Shown here: positions 16,828 to 53,200 of the stretch, piece by piece | Numbering within the stretch: the first letter of the stretch is position 1 | Layout of the letters: each line of letters opens with the position of its first letter | From: Chrysomallon squamiferum | Lineage: Eukaryota; Animalia; Mollusca | Length of the DNA stretch: 64,000 nt | NCBI GenBank assembly: GCA_012295275.1 | Contig: CM022668.1 | Location: forward strand, 9,734,001-9,798,000 | Direction of reading: 5' to 3' | The notes under the pieces: model-generated | The model's database searches: none | What the model was told of the DNA's origin: nothing | Seen by the model: the letters and a program-made list of their open reading frames with translations, nothing else | Position numbers and translations under genes: made by a program

Positions 16828-19800
16828 TTTAAAATATTTCTGCAATTGTTTACTTTTAAGATAAATCTCATTTAGATGACTTTACAAAGAATTATGATAT
16901 TTGTTCTTAACATTAAAAAGTACACAATGAAGAAAACAAAACAAAAACATTTTTATTGTATTTTTTTTTTATATCAAAAATTTTTATTCTCACCTTCTTT
17001 CACTTCAGCCTCGGGTTCCATTTTTATAATTTTCTTTGCTGGTTCATCTTCGTCTTGTTCCTGTTTTCTTTTTTTGGGAACTTTAGGCAAAGTTGAGTCT
17101 GCTGCAGTAATGTATGTCTTTATTTCACTGAAACATTCAGTTCAGAAATATTAATTATTCACATGTCTACTATCCATTTTTCTGTGTGTCAATTAACCAT
17201 CAATCACTTGTTAACCAACCTGTTCTTAAATGTCAAATAATTATTTAACATACGTATCAACTCATTTGTGTTAATGTGTCCATCATTGACATGTTGAGTA
17301 ACTATTTCTTTTAAATGTGTCCACCAATTATAATACCAGTACAATACATCTAGTATTAATTTTTTCATATTACCTAGATCTCTTCAAAGTATGTCTTGGT
17401 CAACTAGTTCAATATGCTCAGTGTTTTACTTGTCAAATCATTTTATGTGTGCTTATAATTTTACTTGTTGATTACTAATTTTATTCGTCAACTAATCATT
17501 TTACACACTGAAAAATCATTTTAACTGTCAACTTATGTGATAACTGTGTCAACTAATTTTTGCATATCAATTGATCATTATGTGCTGTCCAACTGTCAGG
17601 AACATGTCATGATAAATCAGATATCTCAATCATTTTACAAACACCAAACATTAATCTATTAATCAATTTAAATATCGGATACTAAAACTTGTGAACCTAA
17701 TCATTTTTTCCAATTTGCAAAACAACTGCACTGATCTTTCTCTTGACTGAATCTGCAGATAATTTAACCCATTAATTAAATGTCTGCATCTTTAACCAAA
17801 GCAGCTATTTTTCCAGCCAGTTTAAACATTACAAATGCTGACTGAAGTGTTTTAGCAGCAGAATATATGAATGGTATTTGAAAACTAAATGAAGTTAAAT
17901 AATTTCAGAAACTATATTTAGTCTAAGATTTTAGTTTTTATTATGTAAAGATGTGAAAAACTTAAATATATGTCATTTATAAACTATTTTAAACAAACCT
18001 TCTGTTTTCGTATTTCTCCCATTTTGCCTTCATTTTTCCAGTACCACTTATTCTTCTTGACTGAAAGTGATAATCATTAACTTTTTAATTGCTAAAATTA
18101 TGAAATAAATTATTCTTACTTTTTCACTTACAGACTGGTAAAAAGTAAGTAAAATCTAAATGTATCAAAGTAATTTAAACCTTTTAAGAATTTCATTGTT
18201 GAAACTAAAAATCTTAATTTTGTAAGATATTACTTTACAATTCATAAATACCCAAATTAAATTTTAATTATTTAATCTTTTTAAGGCACTAAAAAATATC
18301 AAATTTCAATTTGATATCAGGTCTATTTTAAAGACATCTGTTACAAAAAGGTCCCCTCATTGTAGTATGTTGTCCACATAAGTTTCAGACCACTACTTTT
18401 CAATATAATCACTGGAGACCTTTATAAAATTAACATTCAGACAGGAGATATAATGAAATTTTTACTAGTGAATTGCATCTACATCTCAGACATTTAATGA
18501 GATGAACCAAAGCAGTGACACATCTGCACTTTGCAACAAAATGAGAAATGGCCAAAGGTATTAAATTAGTAAATTTGTTTAAAACAGGCAATTTATTTTC
18601 ACGAATATCAATCAACTTTAGAGAGATTAATGCCACTTTATTTGAAAAAATTGAATTATTTCAAAAATTGATAAATGTATTAGAAATCAACAACAAAAAT
18701 TATCAATCTTTCAAAACCATCACATAAAACATGAATATAAAATAAATAAAAAAAATAATTTTAAAATAGATCGCTGTCATTAATACAGTAACAAAGTGTT
18801 TGCAACTTACTCCAGACTCCTCCAAACTTTTCATAGCCCGTTCCAACTTGGCCCTGTGTTCCAAGCCGAGATCTGTATTAGTGTCGTCTCCCAGGGCATC
18901 AACACGTATAGCTAGCGACGTCTTCGCTGCCAACATTCGAGACATCTGAAATAAAGTGACGTCAGACGGTTATAAAATGTACAAGTTTATTTCTTTAGTG
19001 AAATGTTTATGATTTTGAGATCTTATTTTGTTGTCTTTCTAACTCAAAATTACCAACTTGGCACAAAATATGTATCTACTGTCAACATCAAAACCACTTC
19101 AATCCATGTTCAACACTAATTATATAACCAACGTTCTAAGTAATACATTTTTATTTTTTTATTATTAATGGTATTCCATGCTGTTCCAAAATTTGTTAAA
19201 AAAAAAAAAAAAAAAAAAATTAATGACAAACTGACATTTTAAAGCAACACAAGAGGTTTTACCCTTTGAAAATACATACAGAGTACAAATTTAGCACATA
19301 ACTCTTAAGATATTTTGACTGGGTTTGTTTTATATTTAATAAAACAGTTTTCTTTGTTAAATTATAATTAATATTTGTAAAAAGAAAAGTAACGTGACAC
19401 CTGAAATATTAAAGCAATGAAAGAAAAAAAAAAGGTTTTCAATAAAAGAAATTTCTCACCTTTCCTTTGAATTTAGGGCTTGACTGACCTACAAGAGAGG
19501 CATGGTAAATGAGACCATATTTGGGCGTGTCGTGTTTTGTTTTCAGAGCTCGGAACAAAGCTTTCTCTGCTCCAATAATCTGAACCGTTGATGATGGATG
19601 TTTTGCCAAGTTCAGCAAAGAACCTGTAAATACCAAACAGATAGTTGTGTTATAATTCATAAATAACATTACTGTGTTAATGGGCAACTGCTGTTAAGAC
19701 ATACAGAGAATGTTATTATGATTTTTTTTTAAATATCGCTAAAAAAGAAGCAGAATTAGTATGATGGAACAGCATGATCTGAAGATGATCAAAACAACAC

Positions 19801-21142
19801 TACCCAAAGCCATTATAATATTGTTGTCTGAATAAAAGCCTTTAACTAATTACTGAAGTAATCGAAAGTATAAAAACTACTATTTTTTAATTTGAAGTAT
19901 ATAAAAAAAAAAAAAAACATTACAATGTTTTAATCTGGAGTATAAAATCACTATCTCAGACTGAATTGGACATCAACAATTTTCAGAATTGGAGGACTTT
20001 GTCATCACTGCTAGTGAAATTTGTCAACAGAAGAAAAATGTTTTTTAACACAGTATTCCTACACAGTAGTACCCACAATTAATAGAACAGGAAATTCACC
20101 AGTAGCCATGGCAGCACAACATACATCAAAACTTGACCATTATAGATTTACAGTTTGATATTGCATTTGGAAAGATACAGAAGAATCATTAATACCAGTT
20201 TGTATGATACACTAACATGCAGCAAGAAATCTGATTTCCTGGACAGAACTGCATACACAATGTAAGTTTGGCCACAGAGAAAAAAAAACAATTTAAGACA
20301 CTTGGAATGAGTTTCTCATATCTCTGACAGTTTTCTAATGCCTGAACTAAAATGTTATTTTTTAAAAATTCTGTTTACATCACAAAATTATTTGATTACC
20401 ACACAATGTTTTGTTCAACACAGTATCATAAACTGCTGTTATACCAGCTTCTCAGATTGCTAGATAACCATATTAAATTTGTTTTCTATTTTTTTTTTTT
20501 TAATTATTCAGAATTTACATAAGCTCTAAGTCACTGCAAGTCACTTAAGAACATCACTTAAGAACAAATTTCCTCATAATGCCACTCCTAACTCAAGTCT
20601 TGCCATTGTTATTTCCCTTTTGATTAATTGTTCCACTTTTAACTTTTGTGTCTGAGTTTTGAAATTGTTTTTTTACTAACAATCAAAACACAAAAGAAAA
20701 CTGCCACTCAACATGCATATTTACCAATCAAGACCGTGAAACAAAACATTTTCTGCTATCAAGTCTTTACCTAACATTGAGTCAGTTTAAATATTTAAAA
20801 TGTTCAGAGTCTGCTTCAGCAAAGTCATCATCAATGAATCAGAATTGCAGGACATCCTGTCATCATCAGCAAATACTGAACATTCAGTTATAAAATCACT
20901 TAACCAAACCAAATCCATGCCTCAAACAAGACAACAGTTATCAGGTGCCTTAAAGTATTTGAAGTGCAGCCTCTATTCAATAAATTACAAAAAAGTTTTC
21001 TTCCACATAATAAAATACACATGTTTGACCAGAAAACAGCCCAACTATTAATAACATTATCTCCAGCATTTGGTATGCTGGTACTTACCAATAAAAAAAA
21101 AAATTATTATGTTTATCTGCCATAAGGATTTAATGTTTAAAT

Positions 21143-21178
<36 letters not shown>

Positions 21179-23420
21179 AAAAAAATAAAAAAAAAAAATC
21201 TGCACCATAGTCTTAGATAAATACTCACCTAAATGGGACATAAGCAGTACATTAACTCAAAAATAACTACACTATCTTAAAACACAAATAAAGCATGATA
21301 AAACACTGAACAGTGATGTAAAACATCCAAGGCTGAATGGACTTAAATATATCTATATATCCATATATAATCTTAAAAAACACCTATCAAGATGAACAAT
21401 TTGCTTCAGATATGTCATCATCAACTAATCAGAATTGCAGGACATCCGATCATCATTAGCAATTTCACCAAATTCAAATCAGTTTCACTCAAAATTAGAA
21501 TACAAATGGCAGAATTCACTTAAACATGACACTATCAAACACTGACAGTTCAGGTATGTTCTTTAATATTCATATGTACAATACTTGCAAGAACACTCAG
21601 TCTTACCTCTAAACCAACAGTAATTTTGATGTGTTAAATATTAATATTCAAAGTGACCTGCTTGACCTATCAGTCTGGCCCACACACCAGCAGTAGAATT
21701 ATTAATATTCAGTAATATTAATATTAATAACAGTATTAATATTCAAAGTTACCAGCATGAGCTATCAGTCTGGCTCCAACCAATTCTCCTACCAGTATTG
21801 TCAAGTTGGGTGCTATGGCAATCATTCGGTTCTTGAGATAATCATACAGCTGAGCTCGATAGTCAGAGATATCTATAATCTGAATTTGTGAAGAAATGAA
21901 AAATATTATTAATTCTTTTATTTTATTTTATTTTTTTTTAATTCTAAGTCAGATGATAATGATAAAAAAATATATATATAAAAAAATAAAATTTATAATT
22001 ATGAAAGATACATTTTGTTTTCCCCTTTTCTCATTGCAATATCCTATCCTCAACATTTTTAACCCGGTCGTAACTCACATTATCCTACAGTTATATCTTA
22101 GTTTGCCATCTTACCAGTTTTAATACAATTCTGTTCTGTTTTATATCTTGGTTAATTACAGATAATACCCTAATCATTTAAATCCTACCACTGAGTTTAC
22201 CGTAGTCATATCTCACATTTAATGCACCTTAAGTGTTTATATCTTAAGTTACTCATATAATAACATATCCTACTATTAACTGTATCCTAGTGTTTATATC
22301 CTGTTAGATATCAACCTACTATTAACTGCCCCTAAGCCTTTATATCCCAACAGTTATTTTCTTATTATTCTACTGCTAGCAGTATCTCTGATTTATATTC
22401 TATCAGACATTTTCATTTTATCCAGTGCTAACTGCATCCTAGTTGTACCTGATCACAAAGATACTGAATATTCAAAAGATCCTCCTCTGAAATTTCTGTT
22501 CCCATGGAGATTTCGGCGGCCTCTTTTACTTCCTGTTCAACCTCTTCAGGTAAAATTGCCGAAAAATCGCAGGCGACTGCATTAACACGTTCACCTGGCG
22601 AAAGGGCAAAGGTCATCTTTAGAGAGAACAGGAATTTTGTTTTATCTTTATCTTTTCTTTTCTTTTTAAATAATCTTAACTGGTTAACCCATTTTAAAAA
22701 GAAATCGTTTGGCATTTTTGTTAGTTGTTATCTCAAGACAGAGTATGTTTATAAAACCTAACAGTGAAATAAAATATTAAATAATTCAGGTGAAGGATGT
22801 ATTTTTTCATTTAACATTCTGTAAGCATGAAAAAAAAAAACAGGTTGTGAAAATAGGTTCCAAAAGACATGATTAGTGAAAATTTCAATGATTTAAATGA
22901 AGCTTTTCATCATGTACACACTGACATGAAAAATGATTCGATGATACAAAATGACAGATGCTGTACAATGTACAGTAGTTTACATACCCATTTGTTTGAC
23001 AAGTTTTGCATAGGCGAGGTTGTCCTGTACAATTTTGCCAAGTTCTGGGAAATGCCATCCAAACCATTCCCGACATCGCATGATGTAGTTGTTCAGCTCC
23101 TTATCAAGATCATCAAGCAGAGCTGTGATTAAACATGAGAGAATTTCTAAATATCAGTATACAAGACATTTAAACATTGGTTAGTTAGGCAGAAACCAAA
23201 ACATTATCTGAAGCAATTTAAAATTCTGCAGTACAATATAAATTTCTAATCGGTTAGTGTCAAATTTATAGTCTCAAGATACTAATCTAGCAACAAGGTT
23301 CTGTTATGAATTTTGTGGGATTTAATAATGGAATGAATAATTACTGAAACTAATCTTGTTTTTAATTTCATGAAAAAGAAGAATGGACCACTCTGAATCA
23401 ACATACTTTATCCTACAGAG

Positions 23421-23458
<38 letters not shown>

Positions 23459-26400
23459 AACATCAAAATTGACAAGTTTTAGGTTTAAATGTTTTCAGCA
23501 ATTATATAATGACAATTTTAAATACAAAACTTTTATTAAATAGATGGCATACTTAGTATTTAAGACCAAAATAATGCCTATATTTGATTTGATTACAAGA
23601 GTTCCTGAAGTAACAATTCTAACTGCAGAAAGAAATATTAAAAATACATTTTTTAAAAACTTACAGATGGCTTGAACTATCATTGTATCCACTTTGTCTG
23701 GACTGAACTTCAACTTATATCTTGACAAACTGAAAAATTACAATCACATGACTAAAAAATCAAACATTAAAATCTATTTAAACATTAACAATAAGTGATG
23801 CAATAAGAACATCTCTATGAAAATCTTACTTCAAATTACTAGACCAAAAAGAACACAGCCAAGATTTAAAAATAACCTAATCTACTGCAAATTTCCAGAA
23901 ATTGTCAAAGCTAAGACAAGTTACCTGTGAGCTAAGCCTAAAGCCATGGCAGCCATTTCTTTCTGTGGTAGACCAGTGATCAAACTGTCCATCTGTGAGC
24001 GAATACACCTCATCAGTTCCTGAACACTGGAGTTTGATAAACACTGCATGTTAAACTTGTCCTGCAACAGTAAACACACTCCATTACAATTTTAATTTTC
24101 ATAAAATTGCAGAGAAATATTTCCACAATTATTCAAATTTGTTCTTTATTATGTTTATATCTGATATGTAAATGTAAATATTTTACTCAAATATTTAATT
24201 CATTTTGGTTCAAACATGGAATTTTTTTTTTTCAATGAAATGGTCAAAATTCACACGTATATAAAACCTTAATAAATTCGATGTTCTTAATTAGTAAAAA
24301 AAAAAAAATATTAAAAATTTAAATGTCGGCAAGTTATTCAAGATTATGAAATGTTTTGAAACATTTGTATTTGCAATTTACAAGATAATTATGTGTATTA
24401 AAAAAATTAACATGCAAAATTTCAAATTTACATACATACTAATACAAACAATTGCACTTCAAAAAATTTGATAACCATTTCTACTGTGCAAACAGCTTGA
24501 CATTTATTTATCAGTGGCCAATATCTGACAAAATGCTTACCTTGATGACACTGCCAAGTTTAGCATCAGCAACTAATAGTTGTTCCTGAGCATCTGTGGC
24601 AATCAGTTTTTTCATCATTTTCTTCAACGTTTTACTCATCTTTCCTTCCACTACAGCTGTAGCAGCTGGAAAATAAAATTTTATAAAAATTATTTTTATT
24701 TGAAAGTAAATTTAGGAATAATAGCATAAGGAAGAATAGGGATAATAGGTTTTCTTAAAATCAATCATGGATGTGCATACATACATGTACAAACAGTTCT
24801 GTATTAAATTTCAAAATTTGAGATTAATTTCAGCACATTTTAAAACTCAACAAATACAAGGATGTAGTTTGTTGTGGAAGATAAGTGCCATTTTATAATT
24901 TTAGTTATATTTTAAAATGTTGGTGTTTTTTTTACCTGAAAGAGCTTCTGTCATGTCCTTGAATTTCTGAAAGTGTCTCAGTTTCACTCTGAAATAATAA
25001 AATTATTGAAATGATGTCAAACTAATACATTTCAACATGACTAGAATACTTGCGGTTTCAAGAAGGTCATATCACTTCAGCACAAAATTATAAAACTTTT
25101 GTTATTTCTGAACATATTAATAATTTGTGTTTTAAAGTAAAACTACTGTGTATATGGTCTTCCATTTAAAAAAAAATAAAAAAAAATTTAACTGGAGCTT
25201 TAGTATTAACTTTGAAATATACTTTTATTTTAGAAATTCAAATTTATCAGGTTTTCGAATGTTCTTACACTTAAAATTGTCCTACTTTAAATAGTCAATA
25301 TGTTTAATACAAATTTATTAATAGTAATGCATCTTTTAACAATTATAAACATTCATATATATGTGTTGGTGTAAATGTATTCTGCCTCAGAGGTAGTGAC
25401 GAATAAGTATCTTCAAAAACATCAGCAAGTTAAAAAAGTTATACATCATTGGCGGAACATTTACAACACATGACAAAATAACTTGCATATTACAAGTGAA
25501 AGCTTACATTTTGCTTGCTTGATCTGGATTTTCAAAGTCTAAGTAGAGATTTTCTGTTTTCTGCAACTTCTTTTCCTTTAGAAGCTAAAATATACAATTA
25601 AAAAAATATATATTAACTTATTTGCAATAATCATTTTAAAAATGTCATTCTAGTTTGTTTTATTGTTTTTGTTGAGTAAAACAAAATTACAAATGTAATC
25701 ACAGCCAGTAGATGGTTAAGAAGATAGACATTTTTTTTGAAGCTGCCATCTGGAATTGATTTTGTTGACTATTCCCTGTTTCAGTGTAAATTTCTGTTTT
25801 CCTTCAGAGGAAAATTCACAAACTGAACAAGCCAACTTGGCTGATCTGCAAGTTTGACTTGTTCGTGAAAAACTCAAATATCAGCAACTACAGACAGTGC
25901 AGTTCAGGCTTTGGATTAAGTACACCGATTAAATGCTGAATGAGCTTTATTGAAGTGCATTTTATCATAGGACAGTTTTGTTTTTGAATTTACACTGATG
26001 ATGCTAGTTTGCCTGTTAAGTGAACATAAAATACATTATACAAAATCAGTGTGTGGTCTGTGACTTTGAACAGGGATGTTTCGAGAGACATTAAATACTG
26101 GTACTCTTGTGTTCATTTGTAACTTCGGAAATACGTGGCCCATTTGGATGCAGACATCAAGCTTTAATACATTACATTATCAACACAAACTGATGAATTG
26201 ATTCAGATATAACTGCTCAAAAATATTTTTCAACTTGTTCAGCAGTTACAGAAATAATAAAAAGTACAAGAGAATGTAGATTTTTGTCAGTAACATTTGT
26301 CTTTTCTAAAAAAAATTACTAATTATTATTTTAAAATGATATAATTTGAATATGTTCATATGCGTAACTAAAACCTATTCATGCAGCATAACTGATGATT

Positions 26401-32200: not shown

Positions 32201-34529
32201 TTTAACACTTTCTGGTCAATTACTTTACATAGCTGTGTTATTTATTTATTTACTATTTTATTTTGTCTTTGTTGCTTTTTCTTTTTTTTTTTCTTCTTCT
32301 TTCTATTTCACGTTTTTTAATTTATTTTTAATTTATTTTGTAAATGAAGTTTTACTGGTATATAAAACAAATCTAAACAGATTTTAAATGTTAGATGTAG
32401 ATTTATACCCTTTACTGCAGATTCAGGGCTAACTGTAAAACACAGTACACCAGGGTACTGTTCAACTATATTTAGTACTTTCTTGTAACCAGAGATATGA
32501 GTGTGTGTAACTGAAGAAAAGATTAAAAAAAAAAAAAAAAAAAAAATCCCCGGTGACTAATACACCTGGGTATTTCATTCAACCTATTTTCACTTTAGTT
32601 CTGTTACTTTTTGTATAGGTGACATGAGTAATTTGGTTTCTTTTAGAAGGGCATCATATAAATAGGAAAAAGATATTAAAAATGACTAAACAAGGAGGAA
32701 ATAAAAAGAAATGTTTCCTTATTGAACTAAATATTGAGCTTTACATAAACTCCAGTGTTTCTTTATCTGTGTTATTTACTGTGTAAGTATTCCTATTTAC
32801 TCACCCATTTATTTATGTATACATGTATAGCTGCTTCTCTCCTGTGCTAGTACAGTGTTTATCTATGTTCATCTTAAACAGTAATTATCTTTTTAAGTAA
32901 GTAGTTGTAGTAGTTGTAGTATCAGATTGTATTATGTTTATCCTTTTTTAATCAAATGGATATTAAGATAATTTTTTTAATATAGATAACTGTATACAGT
33001 TACATTAGTTTATTTATTTAAGATACTATTCTGGTTTTGATATATTTATTTAAAACTGATATATTTATTTTGTTACAGTAACTAATGCAGATATTTGTTT
33101 AGGTTAAAAAAATCAAAACAAATCTTTACATTTGAATATTAAAAAATATTTATTTTACTTTCAGTATTAATAACAATAAGGTGCTACTACTATTGTTACT
33201 ACTGCTACTGCTACTGTTACTGCAACTGTTACTAATAATATAGTGACAATAGCACTAGTATTAAAAATAACAAATAATAACAACGACAGTACTGATAATA
33301 ATTAAAAGTTTAATAACATTTGATATTAATAATACAAAAAGAATGTTATAACTTTCTGTTCTGTTTTGTAAATAATACATTTAATAATCATAATAATAAT
33401 AATAATCAGTTTAATAGTATTTGATAATATTAATACAAAAAGAAGGTTGTAACTATCTATGGCTTTGTTTTGTGAAGGTGTCTGTCAGTACAGATAAACA
33501 GTATATATTTGATAAACAAACAGTGTGGCTGTGATGTTGTCAGTTAACACTTCTCTTTGTGTTTATTTTGACTCTCACACATCATACAGAGGAATACGTT
33601 TTATTTTAAATACAGTTCATGTAGCGAAATAGCAATATTTTATTTGTATATATTATGTCCAAGTAGTCCAGATTTAAATTTAGCACACATTAGAATTTTG
33701 CAGACAACTGTGTAAGACTGCTTTAAAATATATTTTTGTTTCATATTGCCCATGAAAAATTCTGTAATTTCATTTTATATTAAAACATTTGTACTGGTCT
33801 GATCCAGATAGAAGTATGTCCACAAGATGTATTAACACACAGAAAACATGAAGCTCAGACACTAATACACACTAAACAGGTTCATGCTGCACAAAACAGG
33901 AATTTAGAGCAGATAAGATTTTCACTGTGTTGTTAGTTACATAAAGTTACATATCAGCTGGACCTACTGTAACATTTTACCTACTTACTGTTTGTCACAA
34001 AAATACCACAAAGCTACTGTATTTAAACAAACGTGCTTTTACAACAAAACAAAAACTTGAAATCTGAAATGAAACAGTGGTTTGTGTTTCTAGAAAGATT
34101 TTGGTGAATTGTTTGGTTTTCAGTTACAAGCTTAATGTAGTGCTTGAAGATGTTAAAATGTGCGTGACTGTGTAATAAAGGAAAAAAACACGGTAATAAA
34201 TGCAGGTACACATTCAATGGAGTTGTCATAATTAAGAGCAGAGTTATAGTTTGCCAAGTTATGTCAGTTGTTGTGCTGAATACAGTGTTAGAGTTTCAGC
34301 CTGTATTTAACAGTGCGATTGAATAAATCATTTTTGAAGCAGATTATAGAATCGATATGTTGTTATATTTATTTCTGCCACATGCTATTGTTAGTGTAGG
34401 AGTTTTTAATAATTATTGTTAATATCATTTTCAGAATGAAGATTTTTCAGGAAAGCTCAGTGTTTACAAGAAGGTTCCAGATGAAAGGTTCTTGAGAAAT
34501 ATAAACTAAAATTTTGAATCTCGAAAACA

Positions 34530-37246
34530 ATGGAGAAGAAGGTGATGTTGCGGAAGGAGATGAAACGCTGTGAAAGTGTGCCAACCTCTCCTCAACGCAG
34601 TGCTCCAGCGAGATCACAGACTCTTCCTGCCAATTCCCGTCTGTCCCCTGTTGTAGTTAATGGATCTAGTGGCAGCAGTGGTGGTGGGTTTTTCATGAAA
34701 CTAAAACGATGTTTGCGTTTAGGAAACAAAGGGCGTTACAGCATCAGTTCCATTCACAGCAAAAGTTCAAAACGAGGTGATTTGTCACTGGAAAGAAACG
34801 GCGACCAAACACCAACTACGTCGATGAGATATCTTCGACGAAATATTCCCGACAAAGAGGAAGTAGTCCTACTTCACAAAGGACCTAGAACATCAGACTA
34901 CGGCAAGGGAGATAGGTGTAAACTTCTGGAGTCAGTTTCAGAGGACACGATTGTTCATATTGTTTGTGACTCTCGGAATGACAAGTGTGAAGGTGCTGAG
35001 AAAATTAGTGTCGAAGAATCAGAAGAAAATGAAACTTTGGATGAAGTGGATGAGATGGATCCAGGCTATGAGACTCTGGATGAGATCAGAAAGAAGGTTC
35101 AGCTACAAATGAAGAAAAATTCAGCCTGTACTGACTTGAAGAATGTTCCAGAAGAACAGGTTGAAGTTCAAAAGAGTTCAAAAGTTCACATTTCAGGTCA
35201 GGGAAGTGAAGAAAGTTGTGTTCGAGATAGTGGAGTGACCACCCCACAGACAGACAGTCCAGACAGCTACAGAGAAAGTAACACTCAGAGTGTCAACAGT
35301 TCTGTGTTAAGTGAATCAACAGGGATTGCTGACGAGTCTGGAATTGAGGTAGATATGCTGGATTTAGACAACATAAATATGTTTGATCATCTTAACAATA
35401 CATCTTCTATTAACAAAATTCCACCAGAGCACCAGCAACGACACAATTCAGAGAGTTTTATTCAGAATGATTCTCAGATAATTGAAGAGGATCTGTATGC
35501 CAACCCAAAGGTTATTTCTCGGAAACGATCACAGAAACAGCAGCAGGCAGAGTCAGAGGCACCTCCACGCTTGAGTCTGGCAAGTCTGAAAGAAGATCAT
35601 TTAGATTTATCATTACCTGACAAGTCTGTCTCAGAAGGAGATGTTTCTGGAAATCCATGGCGAGGGTCATCAGAAGAATCTGACCAGTCAGCTCCACCCC
35701 TGCCAGAACGTAAATACACACTGATAAACACTGACCAGGAGGAAACATCTGAGCTGGAAACATTAGGTGCAGAAGGTTCTGGGAAGTGTGTTCACTCAGA
35801 AGCTAAAGCTGATGTTGAAACATCAGAAGAAAGCACTCTGGATGCTGTCAGTGACTGTGATGTTATCACAGACAATGAACTGGGTGATAAAGAGAATACT
35901 GAACCACTTGATGATGGTTACCAATCTATAAAAGATGTACAGGCTCAGAAAGTCAGTTCTTACCCATCTGAACCTCACTCTGAACAAACAAAACAAAATG
36001 TCTCTGAAAATACATTCAAGTTAGAGGATGATCAAATAATCATCCATGTCAGTGCTGAAAAGACAGAATCTGAAACAGTTTCAGTCAAAGTTGACCCACC
36101 TTTAGATTGTTCAAGACAACCTTCAGATTATCAAGAACCATTTCTAACTTGTGTAGAGCTAATTCAAAAGTGTCCAGACAATTCAAACCTGACACAAAGT
36201 GCTGTGATACTAAAAGAAAATAGTGTGAATGCTAACTCTGTAGATGAATGTGTATGTAAGAGCAAAAACCAAGTGATTTCATCAGAATTAAAAACAACTG
36301 ATAAAGAGATTTCATCAGAATTGAAAATAGGTGATATACAGATACCATCAGAATTAAAAGCAATGGATAAAAAGATTTCATCAGAATTAAAAACAACTGA
36401 TCAAGTGATTTCATCAAAAGTAAAAACAATTGATAAAGTGTCATGTGATCACACTCCGCCTGTTGAGAATGTGGCAAGCAGTGATGACTGTACACCAGGT
36501 GCCAAGGGTTCAAATCATGTCATAGAACACAAACAAGAGATGCTGAACAAAGCAACTGCTGTTGTGTTTGATGATGATGTTGTTGATGATGGAGGTTTTG
36601 ATGTAACGTTGCGAGAGAAGTCAAGCACTGGACAGCACAATGTTGTAGTGATTAAACTTCATGAAAGTGCACATGAAGATGCAGAGGAATCCAGCTTTAG
36701 TGACCTTGAACCTGTGCACTGCTCACATAGTGATCTCATGAATCAGCTGAAACACATAGTCACTGAGGCTGGTGGCTCTGGTTGCCATGGTAAAGATGCT
36801 ACTGGAAATGATGCTGCTACTGCATTGGATGTTTCAAGAAGTGGTCAGAGTGAGAACCGAAAGAAAGAAGAAGACTTTTTCTTTATCGATGATGAACCCA
36901 TTCACATGACATTAGAGGAACTACGGCAGCCACGTTGCCATAACGAATCCACATCTGTGATAGCATCGTCAGTTGCTCAACAAAACATGACTACATCAAC
37001 TTCAAACAACGTTTCTGTCTTTAGAAATGACATCCATAAAGACACATCGTCCAATGAACGTGAGTGTTATGTTATTCTTTTATTTTGTTACATATTTTTA
37101 AATCTCTCCCCAATTTCTCTCTCTCCTCTCTGAATATGGATATTAGTCTGAGTTTAGATATATATATATATATTTTTGTGTGTGTGTGTGTTTTGTTTAT
37201 CAGTGTGAAAAAGGTGAATGTGTAAGAGTGTGTGTGTGTGTGTGTG

Positions 37247-37281
<35 letters not shown>

Positions 37282-39416
37282 TTTTCACTGGTTCATATTG
37301 TTAGGTAAACATGTTCATATAGTTCATGGTTTTTCTTTATTTAATAATCTGTTTATATAATAAAAAATTTAGATATTTAATAATCTGTTTTTCTCTGTAA
37401 TTTATTGTAATGTTTTTATCTATATAATTATTTACTTATTTATTAAATGCTTGCAGAATTATTTCTAGCATGTTTTAATCTCGCATGAACATCTTTCTTC
37501 ATCTTTTTAATTTAATTTTTTTTTTAATTTTTTATCAGAATGACTCAAACATGATGAGTCAGTTTCTGCATTTCTTGAATCAAACTGTATAAATCTAAGA
37601 TAACATTACATAGATAATTCTCTACTAAAATTTATTTCCAGTTATCAAAAAAAAAAAGGATATCACCCAGCTTTATTTATACCTGATTATATTTTATTGT
37701 TATTACCTTATTTTATTAGCAGTAGATGAATATACACTATCATCATATTCATGGATTGTGTAAGGTATGAGGTCATTACACATTTATTCAGTAATAACAA
37801 TATTGATGATGATGATGACAACAACAATAATAATAGGATATATAAATTCAGTCATGTTTATTTATATTTTTTATTTTTTATTTTATTTTATTTTTTTTGA
37901 AAGAGAGAAGAATAAAAGATATTTTTTTTATGTAAATTTAATCTTGATTGAAACTGAATATTTTTCCAAAATAAAGGTAAAAAGAATTTTGTTTTAAGAG
38001 TTAAATTAATTTTGACATGCTGATAATAAATAAAAAAAAAAAAAAAAAAAAATAAACTATTTAGAAATTTTATCTTCTAGTGTTAATGAAAGAACTTAGT
38101 CAAATGTAATTAAAACAATAAAACAACGACAAAAAAGAACAGTATTTTATGAGTTAACGTATATTTAGTCAAGCTAACATTCCAGAAATAATAAAAAAAA
38201 AGGGAACCACAAAAAAAAAAAAAAAAAAAAAAAATTAGAATCTGCACCTAACAAGATAAATTATGTCACACTCTACTAACATTCATCTGGTTCTGGCAGA
38301 CAAGATGGCCTCTGTTAATTAGAAGATATGAGTTTGACCCTGTTGACTGACATGGCAGACTTAGCAGATAAGATAAAGCTTGACTTCAAACAGTCAAACT
38401 GTCTACTTAATAATATGTATACATACATACAGACTATATAGTCATGTAGCTATCATGGTATTTTCATCATTTTAATAGTTTAATAGTTTACTTATTTCTG
38501 TACTATCTGTGTGTGTATGTGTGGGTCTGTGAGTGTGTGTATGTGAGTATGTGTGTCTCTGTGTGTGTGGCTTTGAGTTTTGTGTTATGTCCCAGTGTGT
38601 GTGTATACGTTATTTATAACACAAGTTACATAGTCATTCACAACCAGCACTTTTATTTTAAATATAAAATCTATAAATATATCTTCTAATTTTTGTATTT
38701 GAAATGTGTAAAAGCATTTTTAACATAAATATAAAATATATATGTTCATATTATAATTTTTTAAATTTAAATATGTATCTTCATTTTTAACTTAAATATA
38801 AAATATACACCTGAATGTTCCTATATTTGTATTTTAGATATATAACTGCATTTTTAATTTAAATCTATAATATGCACATAAATTTTCCTATTTTTGTATT
38901 TTAAATACAAAATGTCATTTTTAAATTTAAATATAAAATATACACTTGCATTTTTTTAAATTTTTATATTTTAATTATGTATCATAGTTCATACTTGCTT
39001 TTTACTTTTTTAAATAATTTGAATTTGGTTTCTAAACTGAAAAACAAATCACAGTAACTATTATTTTAAAAAATAATAATAATAAAAAAAAGAAATTAAC
39101 AGGGCTAAATTTAAAGTTTTAACTTTGCTGTTTCAACGAGGAATTTGTATCACTCTGCACTCTGTTGTTTTACGTGATGACAAAGATGTTTAAATACACA
39201 CACAGCATGCAAGTTGTGTATTGACAGTGAAGTAAGTAATTAACACCTGGGAGGTGTGATATTCTCGTTTAACAGCAGGTGTAAATATCACCAGTAACTC
39301 ACCTTTTAACTGTGTCACAGTGTCTGTGTTTTAAAAGAAAATCATAATTAGATCGTAGCTTAATTAGTTTTATGTTAATTACATATGTATTACAAAATTT
39401 TGTGTTTATAAACAAA

Positions 39417-39462
<46 letters not shown>

Positions 39463-41336
39463 AATAATCATAATAAAAACAACAATTTTTAATACCTAAC
39501 TGTAGGAACAGTGTGTGTGCCTGTGTGTGTGTGTGTGGATAGATGAATTAAGTATGTGGGAGAGGTTATAACTTGTTGGTAGAGCACTGGTTTGAGTCTT
39601 AACAGATTGCAGCAGGATCAATCGTTATCAGTCCAGTACCTGAGTTATTTTCCAATCCAATCAGTTCTCTAATGTGGATGTTTTTCTAGGTTTTAAAATA
39701 ATAATAATAATAAATAAATGTTTACAATTGAATATTAAAAATATTTATTTTACTTTCAGTTTCTACCTCAGATTATCATCAAGCCTTTCTGGAAAGTATG
39801 GCTCAGCTTAAAGATGTGAGTAAAAATATTTGTATTTAATATCAGCAGTTAAATAAAATTAATATATTATTATTCATATCAATTAATCAATTAATATTAT
39901 GTAATTTATAAAAATTACTGAGTGATCGCATTAAGAAAGTTAAACAATATTTTTTGTTGAAGATAGCTGCTAGATTATCTTTTAATATAAAACAATGATT
40001 CTTGATAAGTGAGAGGTGTCTGCATATATTTAAAAACTGTGTTGAGCAATTTTTATAAACATCTTTATCATTCATGTTTTGTTTTTTTCTGTTTATTTTC
40101 TGGGGGTTTTGGGGGGTGTTTATTTTTTTATTTGTTGTTTTTGTTGTTTATTTTTTATTTTTATTTTTTTATTTTTTTATTTTTATTTTTATTTATTTTT
40201 TTATTTTTTTTTATTTATTTATGTATTTAGTCATATTATTTATATAGATATTTAAAGATATTAGTTATATACTTATTTACATACATATTCATTTACATTT
40301 ATCTATTTGTTTATATGTTTATTTATTTATCTGTTATTACTATTATTTATCTATTTTTATTTCCTCTATTATTCATTTATTTTTGTTTATTTACTGCTAC
40401 TCTTTATTGCTATTATTCATTTATTTTTATTTACTTATTTGTTACTGTTTATTGACTTATTAGTATTATTTATATTTATTTATTTTATTTTATTTATTTA
40501 TTTATTTATCTACTACAGTGTGGCTGGTACTGGGGACCACTCAGTTACAGTGAGGCAGAGTCCATGTTGATGGCAAAACCAGACGGATCATTTCTAGTGC
40601 GTGACAGCTCTAGTGAAAACTACATTCTAAGTCTGTCTTTCAAGTGTAGGGGGACTGTGTGTCACACTAGAATAGAACATCATAAAGGTAAGTGTAAAAT
40701 TAGTCAGTCAGAGAAAACTAGATACTAAGTTTATCTTCCGAGTGTGTCACACTAGAATAGAACATCATAAAGGTAACTGTTAAAATAGTTAGTGAAAATT
40801 AGATACTAAGTTTATCTTTCAAGTGATTGTGGATTGTGTGTCACACTAGAATAGAACATCATAAAGATAGATCTAAAAATGAGTTAACGAAAACTAGATT
40901 CTTTGTCTCTTTCAAGTATGGGGAGTGTATTTCACACTAGAGCATCATAAAGGAAAATTGACAAATTAGTAAGTTAGTGAAAACTAGGTTTTAAATCTTT
41001 ATTTCAAGTACATGGGAACTGTATCTCATACTAGACTAGGACATGTTAAAGGTAAACATACATTCTAAGAGTATCCTTCAAATTTGCAGGAACTGAAATT
41101 ACGTTGATGCTAGCAGTTGTTGATTTTATCAGTGCTATTGATACTTTTAACATTGTCTTTATAATTATCATTACTACTTCTAGTACTACTGCTATTACTA
41201 CTGTATTGTCAACATTATTTTTTTCATTACAATTTTTATTATTGTCATGACCATTTAAAATTATTGCTTTTATTATATTTTTGTTAATTATTATCATTCT
41301 TCTTCTTCTTCTTCTTCTTCTTCTTATTATTATTAC

Positions 41337-41390
<54 letters not shown>

Positions 41391-41734
41391 TATTTTCAGG
41401 TGTGTTCAGTTTTTTCTCGCAGCCAGAATCCCACGGCACGTCGACTATACGAAGGTTCATCGAGCAGGCCATCGAGTTCTCGCACACCGGTCAGTTCCTC
41501 TACTTCCTGCGTCCACTCATTCCCGGGTCCCCTCCGGTGGCCATCCAGCTCCTCTATCCAGTGTCCCGCTTCCTAAAAGTGCCCTCGCTGCAGCACATGT
41601 GCAGGTTTCTCATCCTGCGCTGGGTTCGAAGAGACCACATCGACAACTTGCCAGTTCCCGAGAAGGTGAAGAATTACTTACGAGAGCATCAGTATTACGT
41701 CGAGAGTCTGGAGGAGGAAGCAGTTGACAGCTGA
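34530..41734 (+). CDS. SOCS7: suppressor of cytokine signalling 7-like protein (long N-terminus, SH2 domain, SOCS box), about 1029 aa
   Basis: Exons 34530-37059, 39760-39815 (..FLESMAQLKD), 40519-40687 (CGWYWGPLSYSEAESMLMAKPDGSFLVRDSS..YILSLSF..HTRIEHHK) and 41400-41734 (GQFLYFLRP..QLLYPVSRFLKVPSLQHMCRFLI..DHIDNLPVP). Phases are consistent. The FLYFLR and QLLYPVSRF motifs fit the SOCS7/Socs16D clade. Confidence 0.9.
36270..36438 (+). repeat. coding 33-bp (11-aa) tandem repeat, about 5 units, in the SOCS7 N-terminus
   Basis: QVISSELKTTD / KEISSELKIGD / IQIPSELKAMD / KKISSELKTTD / QVISSKVKTID. Confidence 0.9.
39557..39670 (+). mobile_element. degenerate tRNA-derived SINE head
   Basis: A-box-like TAACTTGTTGGTAGAGCAC and B-box-like GCAGGATCAATC at tRNA-like spacing; no intact cloverleaf. 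Confidence 0.45.
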
Positions 41735-50210: not shown

Positions 50211-53200
50211 TTAACTGTTTTCTTTCCCTTCTGTGGTTCCTTGTTTCACATGCTGATCTAAATAAGAGGACAGAGTCTGCTGATGTCTTCCTAGTAAAGT
50301 CCGTGTGCGAGATGCAGCACTATTTAAAACAACTACAAGTTCTCCATACAGGTTCTCTATGCCTGGTAACTTGGCACATTGGAGTAGTCCCTCTTTGGTC
50401 AGAAGATAGTTCTCAATAAGTCCCCCTGAAATATGTTACATGCCAGAAAATGAATTGTTAACTTTTACTGGGTTTTCAGTATATAAAAGGAACCGAAAAA
50501 TTGTTTTTTAATACCCAAGCCAAAAATAAATAATATTTTTTTAAGTAATATAAAAGAAATATATTTTAATATGTAAAATTAAAATGTATATTTAAACAAA
50601 ATAGTAAATAAAATTTAAATAAATAAATAAACAAAATTAAAAAATAAGGTATAAATACGTAATTACTTGAAGAAAGAAAGACCAATATGAGTAAATATAC
50701 AAAGAAACAAAAAAAAAAACACAAATAAGAAAAGAAAATTAATGAGAAAATAAATTTTTAAAACACAAAATGTAAGAAAATAATAAGAAAATAAATTTAA
50801 AAAATAAAAGTAAATAAATAAATTAATTAAAACAAATAAATTAAGAATAACAGAAATAAAAAGCTAAATAAAAATAAATAAAAAATAATAAAAGTAAATA
50901 AAATGAAATTAATTAATCTAAACTAACAAACAAACAAACAAATATATAAATAAACAAACAAACAAACAAATATATGAATAAACAAACAAACATACCAAGG
51001 ACATGAACTTCTCCGGAACGTCTTAGTATTTTCATCATATCTGCAACTTTCGGCTTCTCGCCGACAACGTAGATGTTGTTGCCATAAAACAGCGGAGACA
51101 TGTTCACCCACTTCGTATCATCAACAGCTCTCCTGTATATTTAAATAAGACAACTTCTGATTACGTTTTAATTAATTTTTGATACATTATTTGATATTTT
51201 AATATTAACATTTAATAATGTTTTAATTTTAATAGCTGTTGGAAATTTTATGAATGTAACAGATTTTAATTATATTTTAATTAATACATAATTTTCAATA
51301 ATATTAAATAACTGCTTTAATTTTAGCACTTCTGTATTTTAATTAATACTTAATATTTTTAATATGAAATTATTTGTTATTTTAATATTAACATTTAATA
51401 ACTGCTTTAACTACTGTCTAAATATAAAAAAAATAACAACTTTAAATTAGATTTTATTTAATATATAATTATTTAATTGTTACAGATCTAAATACAATGA
51501 TTGTTAATAAAGTTTTAATTAATATCTAACTTTTTAATAGTAATAATATATAAAGGATTAATTGTAACAGCTCTTCTAAATACAATATAACAATTTTTAA
51601 TAACATTTTAATTAAGATTAAATAAATGATATATTTGAAACATTATTATTTACATCAAAACATCTCATTTTAACCGCCGGATTTTAAAACTCAACAAATC
51701 AATAAGTTACATTGTACTTTAATTGATTAAATGTATAATTCAGAATACATATTTTTGGATTATCATTTTGTATTATCAAATTTGTGACTATCTCAAATTG
51801 TGTCACCTTATATTAGTTTAAATTTCAAATCAGCAATGTACACTGCAAATGTGTAATTAAAAATAAATATTTCTGGAATTTTCATTTTATTTTATCAAAC
51901 CCCTGACCACTTTCAAATTTACTCAAAAACATCACAGCATTTCAGATCGATAATTTATACTGAATATCATTTGATTGAACATATAATTCAATAGAAATAT
52001 TTTGAGAATTTATTGTTTGTTCAAATCAATAATTTATAAATCAGATGTTTAACTAAAAACAAATATTCCAGGAATTTTCGTCCTATTTTATCAAATCTGT
52101 GACTGTTTCTAGATTTGCTTTGAAATGATTCATCTCATCGTAGTGTTATAAAAATATTTCAAATCAATAATTTGTACAGCTAAAATGTATAACTAAAATA
52201 AATATTCTAGGAATGTTTTGGTTATTTTATCATATCTGTGACTGTTTCTAGATTTGCCCACCTCATCAGTGTGTTATTAAAACACTTCAAGTCCATCCCT
52301 TTCTTCAAGAGTTTGTTCTTCAAAACCTTCATTTCCTCAGTTTTTATCGGCAACATCTGACAGGCTATGATCATACTGTTTGTTTCAAACATTCGCTTAC
52401 ATCGCCTGAACATATATTCTTCATACTGATTCACCTTTTAATTAAAACAATATGAATATCATTGGTAAAATAAAAAATTATTATTATTTTACTTTTTTTA
52501 AAAACATCGAGATTTAGAGCCATAATAGAATCAACAGTCATTATACAAATATATATATATAAATTATTATTATTATTAATAATAACCAATAATAATAATA
52601 ACAATAATGAGGAGAAAGATAGCAAAAAGTACCCCAAAAATGAAATAAAATAGTAATAATAAAAAATAATATAAAATAAAATTAATTGTAAAAAAAAAAC
52701 TTAAGAAATTAACTAAATTAGTAAATCTACTAATGTACATTATTAAATTTTTTATTTACTTATTTATCTATTTCTATTATTTTTATTCATTTATAAAATT
52801 ATACATTTTTACTGGCTCTTGTCGATTCTCAAAACACCATTTTTTAACATTTTTCTTGAAATTTAAGGATACCAAAGAACGTATATTTGCTGAAATTGAA
52901 ATGCTGGGTGCCTGTGTGGGTCAGATGTAATTAAACACACCTCTGTTCGGGTACTAATTGCTTTCAGTCGTCTCTCTGCACATATTTCCGATGGTTTGCG
53001 CAGCTTGACAGTTAGCAGTGGTTCTGTCAATGCTTCAAACGTTCTACGTTCTACTGTTCCTTTTCGTGGTTTTTGAATGTTTATTTTACCCCCATGTCGA
53101 ACCTGCATGAACCGAGGAACAAATAACAAGCCTGAAAAAAAAATGAAAAAAAAAAAGATTATTTAATCTTAAACTGTTCAGTAAAAATTACTGTATCATT

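Follow-up and report, generated by a model that had tools for sequence, protein, structure and literature searches.

In fungi, the complex introns of clusters II and III of small nucleolar RNAs (snoRNAs) have been reported to be removed by stepwise, recursive or nested splicing, which leaves each box C/D snoRNA in an intron of its own (PMC3596301, PMC5033589). Another arrangement is described for the C/D core protein gene NOP56, in which, according to two reviews, use of a downstream donor retains SNORD86 and gives a substrate for nonsense-mediated decay (NMD; PMC7038934, PMC11028025). Recursive splice sites have been reported in human introns of a range of sizes, with a use that rises with intron length (PMC10156609), and in flies a weaker donor at the ratchet point has been reported to lead to inclusion of the recursive-splicing exon (RS-exon; PMC8605326). 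The release of several C/D snoRNAs from one animal intron is poorly understood. Here we describe a candidate case, intron 9 of NOP58 in the mollusc Chrysomallon squamiferum, which lies in a window of 64,000 nucleotides (nt; assembly GCA_012295275.1, contig CM022668.1, positions 9,734,001 to 9,798,000 of the forward strand); all coordinates below are counted from the first letter of this window. The intron holds three paralogous box C/D units with splice-site-like motifs between them. The locus is compact (2.1 kb), belongs to a core gene of the small nucleolar ribonucleoproteins and offers named candidate sites, at which three mechanisms of release can be distinguished. At present it amounts to an ordinary cluster in which the internal splice signals are unproven; the reading that we tentatively prefer is that this tandem intronic cluster is split by ordinary, NMD-bound alternative splicing in minor transcripts, and not by recursion.

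Three box C/D units in NOP58 intron 9

The preliminary description of this DNA had placed three box C/D units in the intron, and their boxes, their stems and a pattern search all bear this out. The units lie on the minus strand, and boxes C, D', C' and D together with a terminal stem, the structural marks of the class, are present in each. Unit 1 (21401-21462) runs from box C at 21456 to the end of box D at 21406. Unit 2 has its core at 20812-20871 (box C to box D at 20866-20816) and spans 20797-20886 when its external stem of 6+10 base pairs (bp; z -2.98) is included; its box C could also begin at 20869 thanks to an additional ATG repeat. Unit 3 (19948-20017, box C to box D at 20008-19956) is a diverged paralog. 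The pattern formed by box C, guide, box D' and box C' was matched three times in the window, by these three units, and in none of 100 shuffles. Between units 1 and 2, 44 of 51 positions are identical, and the seven that differ leave the 12-nt guide and boxes C, D' and D untouched; of the 48 positions that can be aligned with unit 3, 38 and 39 agree with units 1 and 2, respectively. As sequences, the three units are real and are paralogs of one another; they likely arose by local tandem duplication, and they are predicted snoRNAs, expected to accumulate as small RNAs. None of them reaches the gathering score of an Rfam family. A relaxed C/D scan revealed no additional separate unit within intron 9, and a crude H/ACA scan gave no candidates across the 13 introns mapped in this gene.

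The 12-nt guide common to units 1 and 2 falls inside a published probe for human 5.8S ribosomal RNA (rRNA; PMC10164564), the comparison having been made with this human probe. By the fifth-nucleotide rule for C/D methylation (PMC10557570), units 1 and 2 would methylate a G in 5.8S rRNA. In both units an element of at least 10 nt that is antisense to rRNA precedes box D', whereas in unit 3 the pairing with 5.8S is interrupted at guide position 6, where G has changed to C, leaving one mismatch next to the predicted target position. The G to which units 1 and 2 point is presumably Gm75, the SNORD96 site. Unit 3, in turn, may match a stretch of 18S rRNA. In SNORD96 the guide lies before box D and the host gene is RACK1, whereas in units 1 and 2 the guide lies before box D'. 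No Rfam SNORD96 match was obtained for the units up to E 10, and the likeness is one of target alone, in that the guide of units 1 and 2 is complementary to the part of 5.8S which we take to contain Gm75. Position Gm75 of 5.8S is listed with SNORD96A/B (PMC11550049).

The host gene lies on the minus strand. The frame of NOP58 stays open across 14 exons with GT-AG borders, from 26868 to 16280; final exon(s) beyond these 14 were not placed. Exon 10 alone (19460-19623) has human NOP58 as its top match in PDB (E 1.8e-24), with NOP56 second at 9.4e-19, and both this exon and exon 9 (21753-21879, donor CTG/GTAACT, the slash marking the splice border) have an open frame and are joined in RNA contigs. 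Intron 9 (21752-19624, 2129 nt) is the longest of the 13 mapped introns. Apart from the three units, it contains a decayed tandem copy of the 3' end of exon 9 with its donor (21639-21679, minus strand), which is 90% identical over 41 nt to its parent at 21734-21774, lies 95 nt away and has a donor degraded to CAG/GTCACT.

Two further introns of NOP58 hold single units. In intron 2 (25375-25462, minus strand) a SNORD70 match of 51.7 bits, over the Rfam gathering score, has a long external stem; we take SNORD70 to be hosted by NOP58 in vertebrates as well, in which case the pairing would be old. In intron 11 (18345-18425, minus strand) there is a C/D-like unit (18412-18357) with a 10-bp stem and the variant boxes GTGATTA and ATGA, whose D' guide is shared with the Rfam snoR21 consensus, in a match under the gathering score. 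All five NOP58 units, the three of intron 9 and these two, have external stems, with energies between -8.9 and -16.4 kcal/mol.

The snoRNA pattern was also used in a search for a related NOP58 locus, and none emerged. There were no matches in viral sequences and four in metagenomes, none of the latter with NOP58 by tblastn and none with an Rfam family; 11 prokaryote matches were judged by their titles to be chance and set aside. Two related metagenome contigs (L001:1064-1095 and L003:1371-1402) carry a box C-like motif, a stretch antisense to 5.8S and CTGA, with no clear box D and no NOP58, and may represent either chance or a distant guide RNA.

Splice-site-like motifs between the units

Each spacer between neighbouring units contains a fused acceptor and donor in the YAG/GT juxtaposition that is typical of recursive sites. 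Site 1 (21223-21253, minus strand) reads TAG/GTGAGT at 21229/21228, and site 2 (20765-20795, minus strand) reads TAG/GTAAAG at 20771/20770. Each is followed by a second donor, TTG/GTAAGT at 21089/21088 (score 7.9) and TTG/GTAAAT at 20725/20724 (score 5.5), which would close a proposed RS-exon 1 of 140 nt (21089-21228), containing a long T run and in-frame stops, and a proposed RS-exon 2 of 46 nt (20725-20770). The preliminary description had given these positions and lengths correctly, and both pieces break the frame as it stated; its list of motifs was right for the sites it named and left out a stronger one, GAG/GTAAGA at 21607/21606 (21601-21609, minus strand). With a score of 9.8 this candidate alternative donor of exon 9 is the best internal donor in the introns of the gene, and it lies upstream of all three units. 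A local alignment of the two RS-exons was equalled or beaten by 12.7% of shuffles, and the idea that they are paralogs was discarded.

Scores were obtained with splice models built on the 14 donors and 13 acceptors of NOP58 alone, using a pooled acceptor model and leave-one-out checks. The donor of site 1 (9.2) exceeds the own donor of exon 9 (7.8), and that of site 2 (5.3) is middling. The acceptor scores of sites 1 and 2 are 0.1 and -0.8, at ranks 103 and 137 of 387 intronic decoy AGs, against a range of -2.0 to 4.8 for the true acceptors in the leave-one-out check; both fused sites have TAG, where 11 of the 13 true acceptors have CAG. The signal of the fused sites resides in their donor halves, and their acceptor halves are ordinary. 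AG precedes GT at nine of the 14 true NOP58 donors, and therefore AG/GT alone is little informative. In intron 10, a fused CAG/GTGTCA with a long pyrimidine tract (19395-19425, minus strand) lies 59 nt into the intron; it is the joint-best decoy acceptor of the gene (5.9), the RNA contigs show no use of it, and no snoRNA was found near it by the C/D scan or the crude H/ACA scan.

How far the arrangement exceeds chance was assessed by dinucleotide shuffling and in control DNA. Control DNA has a plain YAG/GTRA at a rate of 0.11-0.21 per kb, and 13-18% of the shuffles of a given spacer contain one; of 2000 shuffles, 1.9% had one in both spacers. The full layout was defined as a fused site followed after 30-300 nt by a second donor. 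With thresholds matched to the weaker observed site, 12 of 2000 shuffles (0.6%) had this layout in both spacers, the 104 kb of DNA around the gene contained it 10 times, and it was absent from the other 12 introns and from the antisense strand. At the thresholds of site 1, it was found in 0.15% of the shuffles of spacer 1 and not at all in about 120 kb of control DNA. The thresholds were picked after the sites had been seen, and these figures therefore overstate the excess; the splice-site layout is somewhat above chance, by a modest amount.

Taken one by one, the two sites differ in quality. Site 1 has a pyrimidine fraction of 0.71, a branch-like TTAAT at -23 and no other AG within 29 nt, and its regenerated donor, at 8.5, outscores the next donor (7.9). 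The site is 177 nt downstream of box D of unit 1, and its acceptor score is near the bottom of the range of true sites. It is borderline, and possible, as a recursive site. Site 2 follows box D of unit 2 at a distance of 45 nt; it has its sole branch-like motif at -11 and a regenerated donor (4.7) weaker than the next one (5.5), and the stem of unit 2 ends about 26 nt from its AG. As a recursive site it is poor.

Possible routes of release

Five sequencing runs contain this stretch, and the RNA evidence consists of assembled contigs from the four RNA runs, all of one study, with an exon depth of 3.6-11.8 over the region 18700-21140; such shallow contigs shed rare variants, and site 1 and the part of intron 9 above 21140 lie outside the region covered. 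The join of exons 10 and 11 is present in all four runs, and letters of exon 9, which match the true exon and not its decayed copy, abut exon 10 as loose ends in at least two of the four. Between 19627 and 21140, intron 9 is met only by AT-rich pieces of 18-21 nt from unrelated contigs, which at such depth is no evidence either way. None of the four contig sets has an intermediate junction at site 2, rare forms being beyond their reach, and in these shallow data neither the last 52 nt of RS-exon 1 nor RS-exon 2 has genuine cover. The junctions from exon 9 to 21228 and to 20770, by which recursion had been proposed to be recognised, could be checked in part: 20770 is in range and 21228 is not, and the joins seen are those of exons 9-10 and 10-11 only.

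According to the preferred reading, in which ordinary alternative splicing splits the cluster, the GTGAGT, GTAAGT and GTAAAG/GTAAAT motifs would act as conventional donors. They would either extend exon 9 or close a small stop-bearing cassette exon from 21332 or 21305 to 21229, with an acceptor 73-100 nt below unit 1; this predicted exon (at most 21229-21332, minus strand) would measure 104 nt from the CAG at 21333 or 77 nt from the CAG at 21306. The side isoforms would place different units in different lariats and would themselves be removed by NMD, and the external stems would let the units assemble away from a branch point. In line with this, every predicted side isoform picks up a premature stop. 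Two candidate acceptors, with scores of 3.4 and 3.7, follow box D of unit 1 after 73 and 100 nt, and a third, with a score of 5.2, follows box D of unit 3 after 103 nt (19853-19877, minus strand; rank 3 of 387 decoy AGs); these scores are within the upper part of the true range or above it. The reported optimum for snoRNAs, also in a fly C/D host gene, is some 70 nt upstream of the 3' splice site (PMC1821038), and NMD-linked alternative splicing close to the snoRNAs is described as a tendency of their host genes (PMC7038934). Three strong internal donors (at least 7.8) fall in the 2129 nt of intron 9 and one in the 6962 nt of the remaining 12 introns (p 0.04), and G/GTRAG is found three times in intron 9 against 0.29 expected (p 0.003). 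Feedback on the level of NOP58, by analogy with NOP56/SNORD86, is possible. The cassette exon, if real, would give site 1 the distal layout known from human sites, and the recursion and alternative splicing readings can overlap in this respect. On the same strand, between unit 3 and exon 10, a series of acceptor-like AGs at 19853, 19828, 19779, 19739 and 19691 (19691-19853) may represent alternative 3' splice sites.

A number of results weigh against the preferred reading. The donor excess depends on how it is counted, seven cut-offs or patterns having been tried: at a looser threshold there are 9 donors in intron 9 versus 20 in the other introns (p 0.22), GTRAGT (p 0.20) and GTRAG (p 0.33) show no excess, and looser cut-offs or patterns as a whole give p 0.16-0.33. 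The splice models themselves come from 14 donors and 13 acceptors of one gene. The acceptor at 21333 has a second AG at -11 and lacks a branch-like motif, and for unit 2 the best nearby acceptor, at 140 nt, scores 2.4, none being good. The distances from SNORD70 and the intron 11 unit to their acceptors, 398 and 297 nt, mean that the distance rule is not binding in NOP58. Finally, all four RNA runs are without a side isoform over 18700-21140, at a depth that is uninformative for rare forms. The ranking of the readings given here is a judgement on weak, one-gene statistics.

As the next most likely reading, it is possible that intron 9 leaves as one lariat and that its internal motifs are incidental. 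The stems would then permit assembly independent of splicing, and the snoRNAs would be obtained by endonucleolytic cuts or by trimming to the assembled unit, possibly with long RNAs bearing snoRNA ends as by-products. The direct join of exons 9 and 10 is the sole exon 9 join in the contigs, and the external stems present on all five units fit this route, long stems having been reported to free assembly from splicing (PMC5519232). Intronic clusters are, moreover, a recognised class in animals (PMC11028025), YAG/GTRA occurs in control DNA and in shuffled spacers at the rates given above, and intron 10 has a better fused site with no snoRNA found. The modest surplus of strong donors in intron 9 is, however, left unaccounted for by a single lariat, animals are reported to have mostly one snoRNA per intron, and introns with two tend to yield snoRNA-ended long RNAs (PMC11028025).

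Recursion is the explanation put forward in the preliminary description, and we consider it unlikely. In this model exon 9 would be spliced to 21228 and then to 20770, with a donor regenerated at each step, such that each snoRNA has its own lariat and the mRNA remains intact, while inclusion of an RS-exon would lead to NMD. One fused site is present per spacer, and the full layout is rare in shuffles and absent from the other 12 introns and the antisense strand; however, its thresholds were fitted to the observed sites, and the flanking 104 kb hold the 10 weak-threshold layouts mentioned above. Site 1, with its pyrimidine tract, its branch-like motif and a regenerated donor above the next one, is suited to the model, whereas site 2 lies close to unit 2 and its stem and has the weaker regenerated donor, where fly ratchet points need the stronger one (PMC8605326); the acceptor ranks count against both. 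Human recursive sites are reported in shorter introns too and at the far end of cassette exons, but their use drops in shorter introns (PMC10156609), and intron 9 has 2.1 kb. Fungal snoRNA clusters are processed in this way (PMC3596301, PMC5033589). The strong donor at 21606, upstream of all units, is of no use to a recursive model. A version confined to site 1 has about twice the likelihood of one with both sites. Of the stepwise removal originally claimed, what stands is that separation is needed, that donors are modestly enriched, that the pieces break the frame and that site 1 is possible; what does not is the quality of the acceptors, which are ordinary, and of site 2. The wider proposal, in which recursion at site 1 at least gives tandem snoRNAs lariats of their own with the mRNA intact, and the choice between regenerated and RS-exon donor feeds back on NOP58 via NMD, is improbable. 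If true, it would show a fungal strategy at work in the coding gene of an animal and assign a function to recursive splicing where the intron is short.

Expression might also be limited to one or two of the units, with the rest, unit 3 being the likeliest, decaying as duplicates, and no separation mechanism would then be needed. This is very unlikely, for in spite of the mismatch of unit 3 beside its predicted 5.8S target position and the presence of another decayed local duplicate in the intron (the exon 9 end), the differences between units 1 and 2 spare the guide and boxes C, D' and D, each of the two retains its stem, and unit 3 retains four boxes and a stem.

Flanking exons and comparison with described systems

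Outside NOP58, two sets of exons were noticed by eye in the list of open reading frames of the window. At 34518-41734 (plus strand) there are SH2 and SOCS-box-like exons of one putative gene, and at 50900-53160 (minus strand) putative exons resembling mitochondrial ribosomal protein L10; both names are our presumption.

Among described systems, the animal intronic snoRNA clusters (PMC11028025) share with this locus the presence of several snoRNAs in one intron of a host for ribosome biogenesis, with C/D copies spread by local recombination; here, by difference, a compact three-copy family without an Rfam family at gathering score occupies intron 9 of NOP58. The fungal complex introns are alike in their outcome, which is that proposed in the preliminary description, and the stepwise release of snoRNAs is not new in kind, having been published for fungi. 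Those clusters have non-coding hosts and consensus branch and donor sites, and their processing was shown by RT-PCR, expressed sequence tags and RNA-seq (PMC3596301, PMC5033589), whereas in NOP58 the intron belongs to an animal protein-coding gene, the acceptors are weak and shallow contigs show no intermediate. The non-coding polycistronic host with abutting consensus introns that characterises the fungal cases is not what was found here, the host being protein-coding NOP58. A literature search, which excluded most subscription journals, found no account of recursive snoRNA release from an animal coding intron.

With the ratchet points of flies and the RS-exons of vertebrates, the locus shares AG/GT and a short out-of-frame piece followed by a second donor (PMC8605326, PMC10156609). 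The known sites are, as far as described there, highly conserved, located mostly in long introns, and provided with strong acceptors, and their ratchet donor exceeds that of the RS-exon in strength; in NOP58, site 2 appears to lack the acceptor and donor-strength traits and site 1 is borderline. NOP56/SNORD86 likewise involves a gene for a C/D core protein with an intronic snoRNA between an upstream and a downstream donor (PMC7038934, PMC11028025). SNORD86, however, is described as a single orphan with a conformational switch, whereas NOP58 has three paralogs, predicted to be of the rRNA-guide type, unit 1 lying some 300 nt from the donor of the exon; the likeness is one of donor layout alone. 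If its donors act as conventional ones, intron 9 may be the NOP58 counterpart of NOP56 autoregulation.

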